Below are positions 52,053 through 62,718 of a stretch of 64,000 bases of DNA, piece after piece. Source of the stretch: Candidatus Aminicenantes bacterium (GTDB taxonomy: Bacteria; Acidobacteriota; Aminicenantia; Aminicenantales; JAFGBC01). The translations under genes were made by a program, and so were the position numbers. Position 1 is the stretch's first letter; each line of letters opens with the position of its first letter. The stretch spans positions 480,001 to 544,000 of the forward strand of contig OY969696.1 of NCBI GenBank assembly GCA_963702005.1, in the 5' to 3' direction. The notes under the pieces are model-generated. The model had not been told where the DNA came from, searched no databases, and saw nothing but the letters and a program-made list of their open reading frames with translations.

Positions 52053-54013
<1,961 letters not shown>

Positions 54014-54067
54014 GAATCGGGCGGAGATCATCCGGACTCACAGATCACTCATTCAGGGAGGTTCGAT

Positions 54068-55633
54068 ATGCGTAAGATAAAGCTCATAACGGGGATTTTC
54101 ATGGCCGGCCTCGCGCTGGGATCGGCCTTCGCCCAGGACCAGGTCAAATCCATGACGCTCGAAGACTGCATCCTGGGGGCTCTCAAGAACAACCTGTCGG
54201 TCGCCATCCAGGTCCTCAGCCCGCAGCTCGCGGACGAAACCCTGTCTAAGGCCCGGGAAAAGTTCATCCCGACTTTGTCGATGTCGTTCAACAATCGGCA
54301 CAGCGAATCGGCGTCCTATTCCTGGACGAGCACTTCCACGTCGGGATCGGTCCTCTCCAAATACAACAGCTACAACGTTTCTCTCAGCGAAGCCATCCCT
54401 TACGGCGGGACGCTGAGCCTGGCCCTGGACTCCTACAAGTCGAACACGAACCAAAGCCTCCAGACGATCAATCCCCGCTACGGTTCGACCCTGTCCTTCA
54501 ACTTCAGCCAGCCGCTTCTCCGCAACTTCGGGGCGTCCATCAGCCAGCAGGAGATCCTGATCGCCCGGAACAACCTTGAGATTTCCGAGTACGACCTCCA
54601 TCAGTCCCTCCTCGATACGGTTTATTCGGTCGAGCAGGCCTACTGGAATCTTGTCTACAGCACCCAAAGCCTCGAGGTTCAGCAGCAGTCCCTTCAGCTG
54701 GCCCGCGACCTCCTCGACAAGAATCAGCGTTCGGTCGAAGTCGGCCAATTGGCCCCGATCGAAGTCTTGAGCGCGCAGGCGGAAGTCGCGACCCGGGAAG
54801 CGGACATCCTTCAGGCCGAGGCCCTGGTCAAGAACAACGAGGACGCGCTCCGGACGCTTCTCAACCTGGAGCCCGGGAAACAGGCCTCCGCCGTCCGCAT
54901 CGTTCCGGCCGACAAACCGGTCTTCGAGGAAAGGACGGTGAATCTCGATGAAGCCCTCCAGACGGCCATGGACAACCGACCGGACCTCCATTCGGCCAGG
55001 ATCAGCCTTAAGAATTACGAGCTTGACCTGACCTACGCGCGAAACCAGCTCCTGCCCGGCCTCAACCTGACCGCGTCCTATTCGAGCCCGGGAATCTCGG
55101 GCGACCGGATCATGTACCTCAACAACAACCCCCTGACCGGGGTCGTCATCGGCTCCATTCCGGGCGCGGCATCCGACGCTCTCAAGGACTCCTTCAACTT
55201 CAAATACCAGAACTGGACGGTCGGTCTGACCCTCGACCTTCCCCTCAGCAACGTCCTGAGCCGAGCCGGCTACGCCCAGGCCAAGGTCAACATGGACAAG
55301 GCCCAGCTGACCCTCAAGAACCAGGAACAACAGGCCTTTCTCGAAATCAGAAACGCCGTCCGGTCCGTCGAGACCGGCTACAAGCGCGTCCAGGCTTACA
55401 AGGTCGCCCGCGATCTGGCCGAGAAGAAGTACGAGGCCGAGGTCGAAAAGCTCAAGGTCGGTTTGTCCACAAACTACACCGTGCTCCAGAACCAAAGGGA
55501 CCTGACCAACGCCAGGTCGACGGAGCTCAAGGCCATCGTCGATTACAGCCTGGCCCTGGCCGGATTGGATCGGGCCCTGGGCGTCACTCTCAAGAAGAAG
55601 AACATCCAGCTCCAGAATTTCATGAATTACTGA
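54068..55633 (+). CDS. TolC-family outer membrane channel
   Basis: Signal peptide, ALKNN, QPLLRNFG, AYWNLV, LDLPL, GLSTN; terminates the MacAB operon. Confidence 0.88.
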   Translation: MRKIKLITGIFMAGLALGSAFAQDQVKSMTLEDCILGALKNNLSVAIQVLSPQLADETLSKAREKFIPTLSMSFNNRHSESASYSWTSTSTSGSVLSKYNSYNVSLSEAIPYGGTLSLALDSYKSNTNQSLQTINPRYGSTLSFNFSQPLLRNFGASISQQEILIARNNLEISEYDLHQSLLDTVYSVEQAYWNLVYSTQSLEVQQQSLQLARDLLDKNQRSVEVGQLAPIEVLSAQAEVATREADILQAEALVKNNEDALRTLLNLEPGKQASAVRIVPADKPVFEERTVNLDEALQTAMDNRPDLHSARISLKNYELDLTYARNQLLPGLNLTASYSSPGISGDRIMYLNNNPLTGVVIGSIPGAASDALKDSFNFKYQNWTVGLTLDLPLSNVLSRAGYAQAKVNMDKAQLTLKNQEQQAFLEIRNAVRSVETGYKRVQAYKVARDLAEKKYEAEVEKLKVGLSTNYTVLQNQRDLTNARSTELKAIVDYSLALAGLDRALGVTLKKKNIQLQNFMNY

Positions 55634-58600
55634 CCCGGCCTCCCTGCTTGCGCGGCTCGAACCAGCCGTAGAGCGTCGGCAGGACGAGGAGCGTTAATAG
55701 GGTCGAAGTCAGGAGTCCCCCGACCACAACGACGGCCAGGGGGCGCTGGATCTCCGACCCCGGCCCCTGGGCGGCCAGGAGCGGCAAGAGGCTGAAGACG
55801 GTGATCGACGCCGTCATCAGGACCGGCCGGAGCCGGCGCGCGCAGCCGCCGGCGATAGCCTCATCGAGGGTTGCCCCTTCCTGGCGGCACTGGCTGATCG
55901 TCGAGACGAGGACGACGCCGTTGAGGACTGCGATTCCGAACAGGGCGATAAACCCAACCGAGGCGGGAACGGAAAGGTAGAGTCCGGCCAGGTAGAGCGA
56001 AACGACGCCGCCGATCAGGGCGAACGGAAGGTTGAGGAAGACGAGGGCCGCCAGCCGGGCGGATCCGAAGGTCACGAACAGCAGGAAAAAGATGAGGCCG
56101 GCCGTCAGGGGGACGATCAGGGTGAGCCTCCGCATCGCCCGCTGCTGGTTCTCGAACTGGCCTCCCCATTCCATATAATAGCCGCCCGGAAAGTCGACCC
56201 GTTTCCGGATTTCGCGCCGGGCCTCGGCGACGAACCCGCCGATGTCCCTCCCCGACACGTTGCACTCTATTCCGATCCGGCGCTGTCCGAATTCCCGACT
56301 GATCTGGCTCGGCCCTTCCTCGAGCTTGATGGCCGCCAGTTCGCCGAGCGGGACGCGGAAGCCTTGAGGGGCCGGGATCAGGATGCGGGCGAGGCTTCCG
56401 ATCGAATCCCTCCAGCCTTCGGGAAAGCGGACCGCGACGCCGAAGCTTTTATCGCCTTCGTAGATGCGGGTGACCGGGCTCCCGGCCACGGCCGTCGCGA
56501 TGACCTCCTGGACGTCCGCGACGCTGATCCCATAGCGGGCGATCCTGGCCCGGTCCACGGCGATCGTGACGTAGGGCTGGCCCGCGACCCTCTCGACGAC
56601 AATGTCCCGAGTCCCTTTAAGCCCGGCCAGGACGCGGCCGATGGATTCGGCCTTGGCGCTGAGCGTCTCCAGATCCTCCCCGAACAACCTGATGATGATC
56701 TGAGCCCGCGTGCCGGCGACGAGTTCGTCGATCCGGCAGGCGATCGGCTGGCTGAAGGAGAAGGCCATGCCCGGGAAGACCTCCATGGCCTTCCGCATCT
56801 TGTTGGTGAGCTCATCGCGGGTCCGGGCCGAGGTCCATTCCCGGCGGGGACGGATCGTCCCCACATAACCCGTCTTTTCGACGCCCCGCGCCTCGAGGGC
56901 GATTCCGGTCTGTCCGGTCCGGGAGACGATCGTCTCGAGCTCGGGGAATAGCTTGAGCCTGCGTTCAACTTCCTTGCTGATCGCCAGCGACTGATCGAGC
57001 GAGATGCCCGGCAAGAGTTGAATGTCCATGTCGAAGGCGCCCTCGTCCATAACGGGAATGAATTCGGTCCCCAGCCGGGGGATGAGGAGGAGGCTTCCGG
57101 CCAGCATGAGGAGCGCCGCCGTCAGGACGAGCGCCTTGCGCCGCAGGGTCCAGCGCAGAAGAGCCGAATAGGCGGAGATAAGCCCCTCCAGGATGCGGTT
57201 CTTGCGCTCGGCGCTCCGCCCGAGGAGGAGGAGGGACAGGACGGGGATGACCAGGATCGACAGGACGAGAGAGGCGAACAGAGCGATGGACACGGTCAGG
57301 GCCAACGGCGCGAACATCTTTCCCTCGATGCCCTGGAGGGTCATGATCGGCAGGAAGGTCAGGGCGATGATAAGCTCGCCGAAGATGCTGGGCCGGCGGA
57401 CTTCGAGGACGGCCCGCAGGACCGTGGTCGGCTTGGGCTGGGAAACGGCCGTCTCGGCCAGGCGGCGCTGGACGTTCTCAACCTGGATGACGGTCGCGTC
57501 GATGATCATGCCGACCGAGATGGCCAGCCCGCCCAGGGACATCAGGTTGGCGGTCAGGCCGGCCCGCTTCATGATGATGAAGGTCGCCAGGGCCGCCAGG
57601 GGGAGCGAGGCGATGACGATGACGGCTCCCCGCAGGTTGCGCAGGAAAAGATAGAGGATAAAGACGACCAGGATGCCGCCGAGGAGGAGGGCGTCCGTGA
57701 CGGTAGCGACGCTCTGACGGACGATGTCGGAACGCTTATAGAACGGGACGATGACCAGGCCCGCCGGCAGGACCCGGCTCCCGTTGATCTCGGCGACCTT
57801 GGCTTCGATCCCCTGTACGACGTCGCGGGCGTTTGCGCCCCGGAGCATCATGACGATCCCGCCCACGACCTCGCGTTCCCCGTTTATAACCGAGGCGCCC
57901 TGGCGGACGGCCGCTCCGATCAGGACCTGGGCCACGTCCCGGACGAGGACGGGGACGCCCCGCCATGTCTTGACGGAAATGCTGCGGATGTCATCGGCGT
58001 CCTTGAGCAGACCCAGCCCCCGCACCAGGTACTGTTCGGCCGATGTTTGGATGAGGCCTCCGCCCGCGTTCTGGTTGTTCCGTTTGAGGGCCTCGACGAC
58101 CTCGGCGAGAGCGATGCCGTATTTCTGGAGGCGGTCCGGGTCGACGATGACCTGGTACTGTTTGATGAAGCCGCCGAAGGAATTGACCTCGCTGACGCCG
58201 GGCACGGATTTCAAAAGGGGGCTGATGACCCAGTCCTGGAGGGTCCGGAACTCCGTCAACCGCGCCTCATCGGCCGGAGCGGGGGTCCTTTCCTCGAGCG
58301 TATACTGGTAAATCTCGCCCATGGCCGTCGCGACGGGACCCATCTCGACATCGACGTCCTCGGCCAGAGCGTCCCGGACCCCGATCAGGCGCTCCAGGAC
58401 GAGCTGGCGGGCGAAGAAGATGTCGACGCCGTCTTCGAAGACGGCCGTGATGACCGACAGCCCGAATTTGGAGACGGAGCGGAGCCCGGTCAAGCGCGGC
58501 AGTCCGCGCAGGGCGGATTCGACCGGATAGGTCACGAACTTCTCGATCTCGAGCGGAGAGCGGCCGGGCGCCGAGCAGACGACCTCGACCTGAATGTTGG

Positions 58601-58727
58601 TGACGTCGGGGAAAGCGTCGATCGGGAGGCGAAGGAAGGACCAAACGCCGAACCCGGTCAGGAAGAGGACGCCGACGAGGATGAGGGCCTTTTGTCTCAG
58701 GGCGAAGGCGATCAGCCGATCGATCAT
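55620..58727 (-). CDS. CzcA/CusA-family heavy-metal RND transporter
   Basis: LPIDAFPDVTNIQV, GEIYQY, ANLMSLGGLAI, EGKMFAPLA, VGFIALFGIAVLNG, RLRPVLMTA, EIQRPLA. Confidence 0.95.
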   Translation of the reverse strand: MIDRLIAFALRQKALILVGVLFLTGFGVWSFLRLPIDAFPDVTNIQVEVVCSAPGRSPLEIEKFVTYPVESALRGLPRLTGLRSVSKFGLSVITAVFEDGVDIFFARQLVLERLIGVRDALAEDVDVEMGPVATAMGEIYQYTLEERTPAPADEARLTEFRTLQDWVISPLLKSVPGVSEVNSFGGFIKQYQVIVDPDRLQKYGIALAEVVEALKRNNQNAGGGLIQTSAEQYLVRGLGLLKDADDIRSISVKTWRGVPVLVRDVAQVLIGAAVRQGASVINGEREVVGGIVMMLRGANARDVVQGIEAKVAEINGSRVLPAGLVIVPFYKRSDIVRQSVATVTDALLLGGILVVFILYLFLRNLRGAVIVIASLPLAALATFIIMKRAGLTANLMSLGGLAISVGMIIDATVIQVENVQRRLAETAVSQPKPTTVLRAVLEVRRPSIFGELIIALTFLPIMTLQGIEGKMFAPLALTVSIALFASLVLSILVIPVLSLLLLGRSAERKNRILEGLISAYSALLRWTLRRKALVLTAALLMLAGSLLLIPRLGTEFIPVMDEGAFDMDIQLLPGISLDQSLAISKEVERRLKLFPELETIVSRTGQTGIALEARGVEKTGYVGTIRPRREWTSARTRDELTNKMRKAMEVFPGMAFSFSQPIACRIDELVAGTRAQIIIRLFGEDLETLSAKAESIGRVLAGLKGTRDIVVERVAGQPYVTIAVDRARIARYGISVADVQEVIATAVAGSPVTRIYEGDKSFGVAVRFPEGWRDSIGSLARILIPAPQGFRVPLGELAAIKLEEGPSQISREFGQRRIGIECNVSGRDIGGFVAEARREIRKRVDFPGGYYMEWGGQFENQQRAMRRLTLIVPLTAGLIFFLLFVTFGSARLAALVFLNLPFALIGGVVSLYLAGLYLSVPASVGFIALFGIAVLNGVVLVSTISQCRQEGATLDEAIAGGCARRLRPVLMTASITVFSLLPLLAAQGPGSEIQRPLAVVVVGGLLTSTLLTLLVLPTLYGWFEPRKQGGRVSNS

Positions 58728-59847: not shown

Positions 59848-61093
59848 GGCTCTCTCCTATCTCTGCGTTCTCTTCCCCGGACCGTTCGAGCTCGGCGCGC
59901 GCCTCTTCATAAAGAAGAAGGGACCTCCAGTATTCGGCACGGGCCTCGGCGGCCGTGCGATAAAGGTCGATCAGGCCGAGGCTGTCCAGCCGCCCGTTCC
60001 TGTATTCGGCGAGGCCCGTTTCGATCTGGCGCGAGACTTCGCCCAAGAGCTTTTCCTCGAACAGACGGACCTGTTCCTCAACCGCCTTGAGGCCGGCGTA
60101 GGCGTTCTCGATCCCGGCCGAGACCCGGGTCCGGACGGCGGCGGCCGCGATGGCGAAGAGTTGGGACTTGGCTTCGGCCTCGACTGTTTCGCCGCGCCGT
60201 CCTTCCCTCCAGACAAAGGGGAGAGACAGGCTGAGCTCGAAGCCCCAAGCGCCGGTCCGATGGCTCGGCAGGTACAGGCCCACCGTAACGTCGGGGAGGA
60301 GGTTTTTTCTGGTTAGGGCTAGATCGGCCATCGCCCGGTCCTGCCGGGCGGCTTCGATCCCAATTGTGCGGCTGGCCGCCGTGAGTTCGTCCTTGACCGC
60401 GGCCAGGTCTTTCTCGAGTGGGGCGAAGGAGAAGGCCGAGAGGACCTCGAGCGGTTCGTTCCCCTGCCGTCCCAGAAGGAGGTTGAGGCGAACTTTGTCG
60501 GCAGCGAGGTCCTTGCGCTTTTCGATGAGGTCGTTGCGGGCCTTGACCTTTTCCACGCCCGCCCTCAGGACGTCCAGGTAGGGAACGCTCCCGGCTTCGT
60601 ATCTCGTGCGGGCCGCCTCGAGGAAGCGGTCGAGAAGGGCCAGGTTCGTCTCGAGGAGCGCGATTGTTTTAAACCGGTAGAGAACCCGGTAGTAGGCCAT
60701 CTTGACTTCGGCGCCCAGGACGATCCGGAGTCGTTCGAAATCAAGACGGGCGATTTCCTCCCCGTAGCGTCCGATCTTGCCGCGCAAGGGGCGTTTGGCC
60801 AAAAACTCGAGGGATTGCTGGATCCCCAGGTTGACCTCCGATTCTTGTCCGTCGCCGGAACGTTTCAGGGGAATCGCTTCGTTGCTGAAAACGATCTCGG
60901 GGGCCGGGATGGCTTCGAGCTGAAGTCGTTGTCCCCGGGAGACATCGAGAGCTTTCTGGGCGGCGAGGACGGTCGGATTCTGACGGAGGGCCAGCTCCAC
61001 GGCCTGCTCGACGGTCAAGCCGGGGCCGGACGAGGGCGAAAGGGCCGCGGCTTGGGCCAACACGGCGGAAAAAACGATGGCGGCGAGATGCAT
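59837..61093 (-). CDS. CzcC-type outer membrane efflux protein
   Basis: Signal peptide, AVELALRQNP, RYEAG, LSLPF, EYRNG; first gene of the CBA order; AAGGAGG RBS. Confidence 0.88.
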   Translation of the reverse strand: MHLAAIVFSAVLAQAAALSPSSGPGLTVEQAVELALRQNPTVLAAQKALDVSRGQRLQLEAIPAPEIVFSNEAIPLKRSGDGQESEVNLGIQQSLEFLAKRPLRGKIGRYGEEIARLDFERLRIVLGAEVKMAYYRVLYRFKTIALLETNLALLDRFLEAARTRYEAGSVPYLDVLRAGVEKVKARNDLIEKRKDLAADKVRLNLLLGRQGNEPLEVLSAFSFAPLEKDLAAVKDELTAASRTIGIEAARQDRAMADLALTRKNLLPDVTVGLYLPSHRTGAWGFELSLSLPFVWREGRRGETVEAEAKSQLFAIAAAAVRTRVSAGIENAYAGLKAVEEQVRLFEEKLLGEVSRQIETGLAEYRNGRLDSLGLIDLYRTAAEARAEYWRSLLLYEEARAELERSGEENAEIGESHED

Positions 61094-61097
61094 GATG

Positions 61098-61153
61098 ACC
61101 TCCTTTCCTGGTCGGATGGGCGCGCTTGGATCGAAAGCGCCGGGAAAGGAGGC
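61098..61153 (-). promoter_or_regulatory. Anti-SD/SD hairpin between the leader ORF and czcC
   Basis: mRNA reads UGA G CCUCCUUUCC ... GGAAAGGAGG UCAUC AUG. Perfect 10-bp complementarity (61143-52 with 61099-108) covers the czcC SD. Confidence 0.75.
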
Positions 61154-61426
61154 TCAGTCGGGCGGGTGGAAGATATTCTTGCTGAATTCCGGGACGAGGA
61201 CCGGATCGTTGTTCCAGGTCAGCCATGATCCGAGGGGCCTAAGCTCGAGGCCGCAGATCGGCTGGAGTGAAGCGGCATTAGCCCAGGGGCGGTGGAGCGA
61301 GTGGCAAACTCCGGCCATCTCATCGTGGCAAGTCGCCTCGTGGGCGAGCGTGTTGAAGGCGAAGAGACAGAGCAGGGCCCAGAAAACCAGCAGCCCGGCC
61401 GAGCTCTTCCAGAAGCGTTTGATCAT
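61154..61426 (-). CDS. Exported His/Cys-rich leader peptide (CzcI/DUF2946-like) ending in FHPPD
   Basis: Signal/TM segment, HEATCHDEMAGVCHSLH, C-terminal IFHPPD; lies directly downstream of a consensus promoter. Confidence 0.7.
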   Translation of the reverse strand: MIKRFWKSSAGLLVFWALLCLFAFNTLAHEATCHDEMAGVCHSLHRPWANAASLQPICGLELRPLGSWLTWNNDPVLVPEFSKNIFHPPD

Positions 61427-61448
61427 GGCGGTTTGAGTTAAGAGTTGG

Positions 61449-61477
61449 ATTGTATCCGGCCGCTTCCCCGCTGTCAA
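61449..61477 (-). promoter_or_regulatory. Sigma70 promoter of the leader-czcCBA operon
   Basis: Minus strand TTGACA-N17-TACAAT. Confidence 0.75.
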
Positions 61478-61614
61478 TGCCGGAAGGCGTCGATAAAAGC
61501 AATGACCTTCCCGGGATTCATAAATTTAATTTATTAATCCCGGAGAAGGAATTGCTTCAGAATCCAATCGGATTTGTTTAGCGCCCCGCGATGGGCTTAC
61601 AATAGAACCGTGCC

Positions 61615-62385: not shown

Positions 62386-62718
62386 ATGAACCGTAGACTT
62401 ATCAGGCCCAATTTTACGGAAATCAAGGACAGGCTGAGCGCCCAGGACCAGGCCAAGAAAAAAATCCACCCCCCGACCGATACCTTTGCCGAGAATTACT
62501 ACTACCTCAAGCAGATGAACAAGAAAACCCCGATGGCGGTCGTTTTCGCGGACGGCCAGATCATCGAGGGCACCATCGAATGGTACGACCGGAACACGAT
62601 CAAGCTCAACCGCGACAACGCCCCGAACCTCCTCATCTACAAGGCCAACATTAAGTACATCTACAAACTCGATGAGACGCCCGAGCCCGAGGAGGATCTC
62701 AAGAAGAAGAAAAAATGA
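62386..62718 (+). CDS. Divergent Hfq/Sm-fold RNA chaperone
   Basis: Sm1-like VVFADGQIIEGTIEWYD and Sm2-like LLIYKANIKYI; N-terminal extension. Confidence 0.7.
   Translation: MNRRLIRPNFTEIKDRLSAQDQAKKKIHPPTDTFAENYYYLKQMNKKTPMAVVFADGQIIEGTIEWYDRNTIKLNRDNAPNLLIYKANIKYIYKLDETPEPEEDLKKKKK

Follow-up and report, generated by a model that had tools for sequence, protein, structure and literature searches.

A conserved leader peptide ahead of a heavy-metal efflux operon in Aminicenantia: a candidate CutF-like pause-and-unmask switch

The leader peptide and its family

We analysed a window of 64,000 nucleotides (nt) from a Candidatus Aminicenantes bacterium (contig OY969696.1, positions 480,001 to 544,000; all positions below are those of the window), in which a short leader open reading frame (ORF) stands at the head of an operon for a heavy-metal efflux pump (Table 1). 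The leader peptide combines a hydrophobic N-terminus, a His/Cys cluster and a C-terminal proline motif, and right behind its stop codon lies a complement of the Shine-Dalgarno (SD) element of the next gene, which encodes an outer-membrane efflux protein (OEP). A preliminary description of this locus had proposed a metal-sensing ribosome-arrest leader that controls pump translation through an anti-SD switch. Its account of the layout is borne out: the TTGACA-17-TACAAT promoter and the 90-codon ORF with its His/Cys cluster and C-terminal FHPPD are present as described, the leader is conserved at the operon head, with FHPP and three His/Cys ligands invariant in relatives, and the genes that flank the operon include no transcriptional metal regulator.

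A search with the single leader sequence recovered six relatives of 62-70% identity, in which the stretches HEATCHxExAGVCHSLH and KNIFHPPD are invariant, and phmmer against 1.84 billion representatives gave eight matches at E ≤0.001, six of them true small relatives. With the profile of a 23-sequence family alignment (A2), which was used for the family searches, we found the leader in the window's order, where 47 of 246 genomes have it; carriers occur in the taxonomic families f4 (32/87), f3 (9/27), f7 (3/20) and f6 (2/96), and neither of the two same-genus genomes carries it by this search. An even sample of the phylum (401 genomes) held three carriers: besides the window genome, these were a second genome from its order and one from a different order of the same class. 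The family is, as far as we searched, confined to the class that holds Aminicenantales. Searched against 5.8 billion proteins, the profile matched 61 clusters, all of them annotated as 'hypothetical' and none with a Pfam domain, and no description of an FHPPD leader family or its motif was found in the searched literature.

Merging of duplicates reduced 46 matches to 31 distinct loci, and L010 (G029, E 0.0024) was dropped as a frame of 126 amino acids (aa) without the motifs. The OEP gene follows directly downstream of the leader in all 31 loci, at a distance of 41-60 nt (60 nt in the window), and has a GGAGG SD in 30 of them. H29, C33, H45, H87, P88 and P89 are invariant in the 23-sequence alignment, and all synonymous codons are used at these residues, which points to selection on the peptide and not on the RNA. 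The leader ORF, as judged from these sequences, is a real gene under peptide-level selection, which defines an unnamed family. Two proteins, P0012 (2281 aa) and P0014 (152 aa, low-complexity repeats), were excluded from the alignments; P0012 matches leader residues 24-61 in four stretches (E 7.2e-06) and may hold repeats of a similar His/Cys motif. At one locus (L005:3-1433, minus strand), the ORF behind the leader encodes 477 aa with OEP domains followed by HlyD_D23 at residues 402-477 and reaches the contig end, which could reflect a fusion, a deletion or an assembly artefact.

Conservation along the peptide is uneven: mean pairwise identity is 0.70 over the last 12 residues, 0.53 over the His/Cys motif and 0.18 over the 33-residue linker (46-78). 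The linker nevertheless keeps its length: in 39 of 43 distinct sequences, the first Pro comes 55 residues after the Cys (range 53-58); H45 and the first Pro are 43 residues apart. Within the His/Cys motif, H34 is usual and C41 is not conserved. The C-terminal core reads F-H-P-P in 42 and Y-H-P-P in one of the 43 sequences, followed by D (38/43), N (4/43) or L (1/43). Leaders that carry three extra codons at this end (L004, L008, L013, L024, L006, L030, L019, L005, L045) use pyrimidine-rich ones, such as CTT CTT TCC, and the extra codons look like read-through of the spacer, as though the stop codon had shifted.

The export signal of the preliminary description holds as far as a hydrophobic N-terminus is concerned, since such a segment (15-residue window with a Kyte-Doolittle mean of at least 2.0, K/R before it) occurs in 31/31 loci and ends at the invariant His. 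Cleavage is not supported: only 14 of the 31 loci have a small residue at position -1 of His29, so a cleaved signal is not conserved, and the segment may as likely be an uncleaved signal anchor. AlphaFold, run with the family alignment, predicts a helix at residues 9-49 with a predicted local distance difference test (pLDDT) score of about 95 at residues 11-30; only this N-terminal helix is confident, no globular part is predicted, and pLDDT is 44-54 past residue 40.

The proposed kinship with DUF2946/CruR-type leaders failed every sequence test. P0001 has no Pfam match at E ≤10, none of the 23 family members matches PF11162 or PF20558 at E ≤10, and PF11162 finds no match in the whole genome at E ≤1. 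Alignment of A2 by hhalign with A4, a set of four Acidobacteriota DUF2946 proteins with CxxC and RAPP/RGPP, gave a probability of 0.9% over 11 columns, and A4 is shallow enough to leave room for a very remote link. In an Atlas search, a 'DUF2946 domain-containing' cluster appeared only at rank 17 (score 0.92), and even canonical DUF2946 proteins occur in few genomes of the phylum sample (4/301). DUF2946 membership of the leader was rejected on the missing PF11162 match and the hhalign result.

The promoter upstream of the leader matches 11 of 12 consensus positions and is the sole promoter-like site between 60800 and 62000 (shuffle mean 0.4). Hexamers and spacing are identical in 5/5 close metagenome relatives, and a promoter that matches at least nine of the 12 positions lies upstream of the leader in 29 of the 31 loci. 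In the window, 22 nt without an SD (61427-61448) separate the end of the -10 hexamer from the leader ATG. This gap shrinks to 7-8 nt in 14 of the 31 distinct relatives (L002, L003, L018, L009, L011, L037-L040, L042-L044, L046, L047), so the leader would be translated from a leaderless mRNA there. The -35 hexamer and the promoter spacer are flanked by a 6-bp inverted repeat (TCCGGC / GCCGGA at 61455-61460 and 61479-61484), which has 7-bp arms at the same site in L053 and shorter or different arms in the other close relatives; it may have arisen by chance or serve as an operator for a regulator whose gene lies elsewhere.

Table 1. Features of the leader and pump locus in the window
Feature	Position	Strand	Details
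Sigma-70-type promoter	61449..61477	-	TTGACA 61477-61472, 17-nt spacer, TACAAT 61454-61449
Leader ORF, 90 codons + TGA (protein P0001)	61154..61426	-	ATG 61426-61424, TGA 61156-61154
Leader codons 1-28, basic N-terminus and hydrophobic segment (signal peptide or signal anchor)	61343..61426	-	Reaches invariant His29
Leader codons 29-45, His/Cys cluster HEATCHDEMAGVCHSLH	61292..61342	-	23-sequence alignment; motif variants in 43 distinct sequences
Leader codons 79-90, conserved C-terminal block PxFxxxIFHPPD	61157..61192	-	HPPD at 61168-61157 (CAC CCG CCC GAC)
Anti-SD CCTCCTTTCC	61143..61152	-	Begins 2 nt past the leader stop (one base between)
Inner 5-bp hairpin GGCGC / GCGCC	61118..61141	-	Inside the loop of the anti-SD/SD helix; in minimum-free-energy and centroid folds
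SD strand of the helix GGAAAGGAGG	61099..61108	-	GGAGG core 61103-61099, 5 nt 5' of the OEP ATG (61093-61091)
OEP gene, czcC/cusC-like, 418 aa	59837..61093	-	PF02321, E 9.4e-35
Membrane-fusion lipoprotein gene, 372 aa	58729..59847	-	HlyD_D23 (PF16576); RND_mfp above cut-off; 11-nt overlap with OEP gene end
CusA/CzcA-family heavy-metal RND permease gene	55620..58727	-	Likely start MIDRLI..., immediately past the stop of the membrane-fusion protein gene

The RNA between leader and pump genes

One nucleotide past the leader stop, as the preliminary description stated, begins an exact complement of the OEP gene's SD strand (CCTCCTTTCC, 61152-61143, against GGAAAGGAGG, 61108-61099), and the two form a 10-bp helix in both the minimum-free-energy and the centroid fold. 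With the full spacer, the pairing probability of the window SD is 1.00, a value that one of 100 dinucleotide shuffles of the spacer reaches; among 400 sampled GGAGG-SD genes of the same genome, 4.3% have an SD pairing of at least 0.99, and the mean is 0.58. All of the pairing mass (1.00) lies inside the footprint of a ribosome that holds the second Pro in its P site, which 0/60 shuffles reach. The anti-SD beside the stop is kept in 5/5 close metagenome relatives with four distinct spacers, where 47 of 50 helix cells are paired, compared with 52-74% in slid controls (3' partners moved by 1-3 columns). One U-A pair has become C-G among these relatives, and the inner hairpin is kept in L053 and L055 and not in L052 and L054.

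Over the 31 loci, the RNA upstream of the SD consists of 73% pyrimidine, 35% C and 11.5% G. A pyrimidine fraction of at least 0.70 was found for 17 of 29 family spacers, against 0/53 background GGAGG genes from two member genomes, and a G content of at most 12.5% for 20 of 29, against 4/53; upstream of GGAGG SDs in the window genome, the mean pyrimidine fraction is 0.49. This comparison covered 40 nt and omitted L005 and L039, which have no GGAGG in the scanned slot. It also clips the window's anti-SD, and the SD-pairing value of 0.53 that it returns for the window is an artefact, the full-spacer value being 1.00. The window's own spacer has 60% pyrimidine and 22% G, and the tract is U-rich instead of C-rich in low-GC members.

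Predicted SD pairing averages 0.83-0.87 over the family, as opposed to 0.48-0.58 for background genes. If the fold also takes in the leader's last 36 nt, the main partner of the SD lies in the coding end at 13 of the 31 loci, between the stop and +12 at 10 and deeper in the spacer at 5. The conserved RNA features of the family as a whole are a pyrimidine-rich, G-poor spacer and a GGAGG SD, with no fixed register. An attenuator based on an intrinsic terminator was rejected: no terminator-like site lies between leader and OEP gene, and the arm of the SD hairpin is not followed by a U tract.

The pump operon and its surroundings

The leader is followed by genes for an OEP, a membrane-fusion protein (MFP) and a CusA/CzcA-family permease of the resistance-nodulation-division (RND) type in a single operon, which corresponds to a tripartite efflux system of the heavy-metal efflux (HME)-RND class (CzcCBA / CusCBA type). 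The permease matches TIGR00914 with 1131.8 bits (cut-off 701.45), and the top NCBIfam match of the OEP protein is IhpA, under its cut-off. The preliminary description had called the operon CzcCBA. A heavy-metal RND tripartite pump is indeed encoded, whereas the 'Czc' label is not established: transmembrane segment 4 (TM4) of the permease reads SVG...DAT...VEN, and the divalent Zn/Co/Cd subtype of CzcA is said to have the TM4 signature DFG...DGA...VEN, so that the window's TM4 equals neither this reported Czc signature nor clearly the reported Cus one. The solved structures nearest to the permease are ZneA (706.5 bits) and CusA (664.7 bits); as the two are about equally distant, the pump's HME subgroup may be one in which no member has been characterised.

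Activation of metal efflux pumps is usually ascribed to two-component systems or to regulators of the MerR/ArsR type. A metal regulator was sought among the genes that flank the leader-pump operon, and none was found. The divergent genes upstream of the leader encode a GDSL lipase, an Hfq-like protein and PdxA, the Hfq-like ORF (110 aa, 62386-62718, plus strand) being located between the lipase gene and pdxA. At the other end, a MacB-type ABC permease gene and a second OEP gene (52784-55633, plus strand) converge with the end of the RND gene.

A candidate switch, its rivals and known systems

On balance, we lean towards reading the leader as a cis-acting pause-and-unmask switch of the OEP-MFP-RND heavy-metal efflux operon, which would resemble the copper-responsive leader CutF without being a detectable relative of it. 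The promoter would give a transcript with a very short 5' end that lacks an SD, and the hydrophobic N-terminus would bring the nascent chain co-translationally to the membrane, presumably with the N-terminus inside and the C-terminus outside. With the ribosome at the HPPD codons, the H29-x3-C33-H34-x10-H45 site would be freshly out on the periplasmic side, and the fixed Cys-Pro distance of 55 residues could serve as a ruler. The Pro-Pro-Asp peptide bonds would form slowly by their nature, and the dwell time could depend on elongation factor P (EF-P), on how hard translocation pulls and on metal occupancy of the emerged site. Because the post-stop bases under a ribosome that dwells at the last codons or the stop are, in the window, the anti-SD, the GGAGG of the OEP gene would be freed and the translationally coupled pump genes would be made; once the ribosome has gone, the 10-bp helix would re-form and mask the SD. 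Co-translational export, pausing, metal binding, the direction in which metal induces and the identity of the metal are what we infer here, rather than observations.

By sequence criteria, the C-terminus qualifies as a putative EF-P-dependent XPPX pause motif (PPD in 38 and PPN in 4 of 43 sequences), and the genome encodes EF-P (224.3 bits, above cut-off). The highest pause scores among PPX motifs of E. coli are reported for PPW, PPN, PPD and PPG as well as PPP (PMC13602936). A second EF-P-like gene of the genome (G000:C1:3430292-3430852, L060; 171.5 bits, under the efp cut-off) may encode a paralogue of the EfpL type, with a possible role in pausing at Pro-Pro.

Several results weigh against the switch. 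The 121-nt window region folds no more stably than its shuffles (z = -0.39; 72 of 200 equal it). Covariation of the anti-SD, which the preliminary description had offered as a check, amounts to the one compensatory pair and is not significant in the five close sequences, where 215 of 500 shuffles match the observed value. The companion check, conservation of the anti-SD, succeeds in the 5/5 close relatives and fails family-wide: no helix register or position is conserved, and SD pairing is 0.87 for native spacers and 0.86 for their dinucleotide shuffles. With the second Pro in the P site, the ribosome's footprint takes in the SD partner at only 10 of 31 loci, the window being among the clear cases; the family-wide footprint test gave a mean of 0.32 against 0.26 for shuffles, with 14 of 31 loci above their own shuffle mean (Wilcoxon p = 0.48). 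The idea that a paused ribosome would cover the anti-SD stands for the window and does not rise above shuffles in the family. Ten of the 43 sequences have 3-5 extra, pyrimidine-rich codons after PP(D/N), which puts their stop 9-15 nt from the Pro codons, and in these members a terminating ribosome, not a Pro-paused one, would reach the anti-SD. Pauses at PPD are, moreover, normally resolved by EF-P, and the pyrimidine-rich, G-poor spacer would be just as compatible with Rho loading or with an enhancer that binds S1. The claim of a RAPP-type arrest motif had to be given up: in such motifs, nothing can reportedly replace the Arg, and only a small residue is accepted at the second position (PMC12992588), and FHPP has Phe-His (in one sequence Tyr-His) at the R-(A/G) positions and lacks the Arg. 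Since no DUF2946 homology is detectable, the analogy with CutF is one of architecture alone.

By the sequence geometry, termination at the leader stop would let any ribosome open the window helix, and the family has no fixed geometry between pause site and anti-SD. Both points would suit a constitutive translational coupling, in which the hairpin ties OEP synthesis to translation of the first cistron without nascent-chain sensing, and the peptide is a functional, membrane-anchored metal-binding accessory (compare CzcI or a CusF-like helper). With a small residue before His29 in 14/31 loci only, many members would indeed stay membrane-anchored and present their His/Cys site at the periplasmic face, and CzcI precedes czcCBA without a Pro motif, as described in PMC9973294. 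We consider such an arrangement unlikely. Against it stand a linker that is unconserved (0.18) yet fixed in length, the lack of a predicted fold beyond the helix, and the position of the best-conserved block, whose last 12 residues end with PP(D/N) at or near the stop, as would be typical of tunnel-acting arrest sequences and not of a binding domain.

Attenuation through Rho, on the model of CruR or TnaC, would keep the dwelling ribosome and change its target: at HPPD or the stop it would block a Rho loading site in the spacer, and its fast departure would lead to termination. Masking of the SD would then be secondary and would keep the RNA untranslated and accessible to Rho. The genome encodes Rho (636.7 bits), no intrinsic terminator lies between leader and OEP gene, CruR is reported to operate by Rho-dependent attenuation (PMC9426467), and the high C and low G content of the family spacers (35% and 11.5%; G at most 12.5% in 20/29 spacers against 4/53 background genes) is favourable. 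Yet the spacers measure just 41-60 nt, compared with 162 nt for cruR-bfrG (PMC9973294), the tract is rich in U and not in C in low-GC members, a strong GGAGG is kept in 30/31 loci, and the window spacer pairs perfectly with the SD over 10 bp although it is no more than 60% pyrimidine and contains 22% G. We judge Rho control to be quite improbable here. Composition is also the argument for a translation enhancer, in which the pyrimidine tract would be an unstructured S1-binding leader that, together with the strong SD, provides high OEP expression, the window helix being incidental: it is the spacer composition alone, not the helix, that is conserved family-wide. Nevertheless, the helix is present at 94% of cells in the five close relatives (52-74% when slid), background genes fall far short of the family in predicted SD pairing, and the conserved peptide would be left unexplained, so we hold this explanation to be very improbable.

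A bolder form of the pause-and-unmask reading, possible in our view but rather doubtful, is that of a convergent, independently evolved nascent-chain metal sensor. It would hold a signal-anchored His3-Cys site at a distance of exactly 55 residues from an arrest module of a new kind, F-x3-I-F-H-P-P-(D/N), would often be read from leaderless mRNA, and would be the only dedicated HME-RND regulator throughout Aminicenantia. If this were true, bacteria would have arrived at the CutF/CruR principle, as a general solution, on more than one occasion, and regulated stalling sequences would gain a new class in FHPP(D/N). CutF and CruR have made clear that the exported nascent peptide itself can be the periplasmic sensor, and the present locus suggests that this logic is at work in a deep-branching, uncultured lineage too, carried by a peptide family that is invisible to standard DUF2946 searches. 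Surveys based on DUF2946 would in that case underestimate how frequent the mechanism is. With a linker that is fixed in length and free in sequence, the family offers a clean test of the 'ruler' idea, and it also bears on the question whether a plain PPD/PPN pause, rather than RAPP, suffices for regulated arrest.

Among known systems, CutF of Rhodobacter capsulatus (cutFOG, DUF2946) comes closest. It is described as having a Sec signal, a CxxxC site and a C-terminal PPP, with a stem-loop that shields the SD of cutO; copper prolongs an EF-P-sensitive stall, whereupon the stem-loop melts (PMC9973294; bioRxiv 10.1101/2025.02.05.636593). CutF and the present leader are both small first cistrons with an N-terminal, Sec-type hydrophobic signal and EF-P-type proline pausing (here predicted from the motif). 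In CutF as in the window, a short spacer carries a stem-loop over the SD of the next gene, which is a predicted one in our case. The copper motif of CutF lies 45 residues from its C-terminal motif, a spacing that its authors relate to the length of the ribosomal tunnel and the SecY channel (PMC9973294); the 43 residues between H45 and the first Pro are close to this value. Both targets detoxify metals, so metal should induce here as well. The preliminary description had suspected that an exporter target might reverse the logic of the copper-repressed importer. The target is an exporter, but CutF, too, induces a detoxifying gene, and the logic is therefore that of CutF and no new reversal.

In a survey of CutF-like genes, OEP genes of RND systems are reported as the commonest downstream neighbour (PMC9973294). 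Our leader falls within the rule-based part of the definition given there, with 90 aa, PP at 88-89, K/R and a hydrophobic segment at the N-terminus, and an OEP gene 60 nt downstream on the same strand, and outside its seeding by jackhmmer homology. Passing the rule-based filters while failing all DUF2946 sequence tests, it would work like CutF without being a DUF2946/RAPP member. The differences are considerable: the present family ends in IFHPP(D/N) instead of PPP and offers a His3-Cys ligand set (H-x3-C-H-x10-H) instead of CxxxC; unlike that of CutF, its signal is probably uncleaved in many members; its mRNA lacks an SD for the leader and looks leaderless in 14/31 relatives; and it occurs in an uncultured lineage of Acidobacteriota (Aminicenantia).

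CruR (Bp2923) of Bordetella pertussis, a DUF2946 protein with CXXC and RAPP, is reported to be relieved of its arrest by copper, upon which Rho terminates transcription (PMC9426467). Like the present leader, it is encoded by an upstream ORF and combines metal ligands with a Pro-Pro at the C-terminus, and it controls the metal-transport genes downstream of it post-transcriptionally. It acts in a 162-nt spacer and independently of its signal sequence, whereas the window has a 60-nt spacer with an anti-SD; its target is a copper-repressed importer, whereas ours is an exporter; and its RAPP contains the Arg that the present motif lacks. Like the leader, the RAPP/RGPP arrest peptides ApdA, ApdP and ApcA, as well as SecM, are small secreted or membrane proteins whose ORF lies upstream of the gene that they regulate and whose conserved C-terminal block ends in Pro-Pro. 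SecM stalling opens an SD-sequestering hairpin, and this group is described as monitoring the export machinery, not metals (PMC12992588). CzcI of Cupriavidus metallidurans, a small exported protein encoded directly upstream of the HME-RND operon czcCBA, has been suggested to be a metal-sensing regulator; compared by its description, it has no C-terminal proline motif, unlike the present leader (PMC9973294). Next to these systems, the Aminicenantia leaders probably represent a sequence-unrelated family in which a known, CutF-type principle goes with a C-terminal motif that is new and with another set of ligands.

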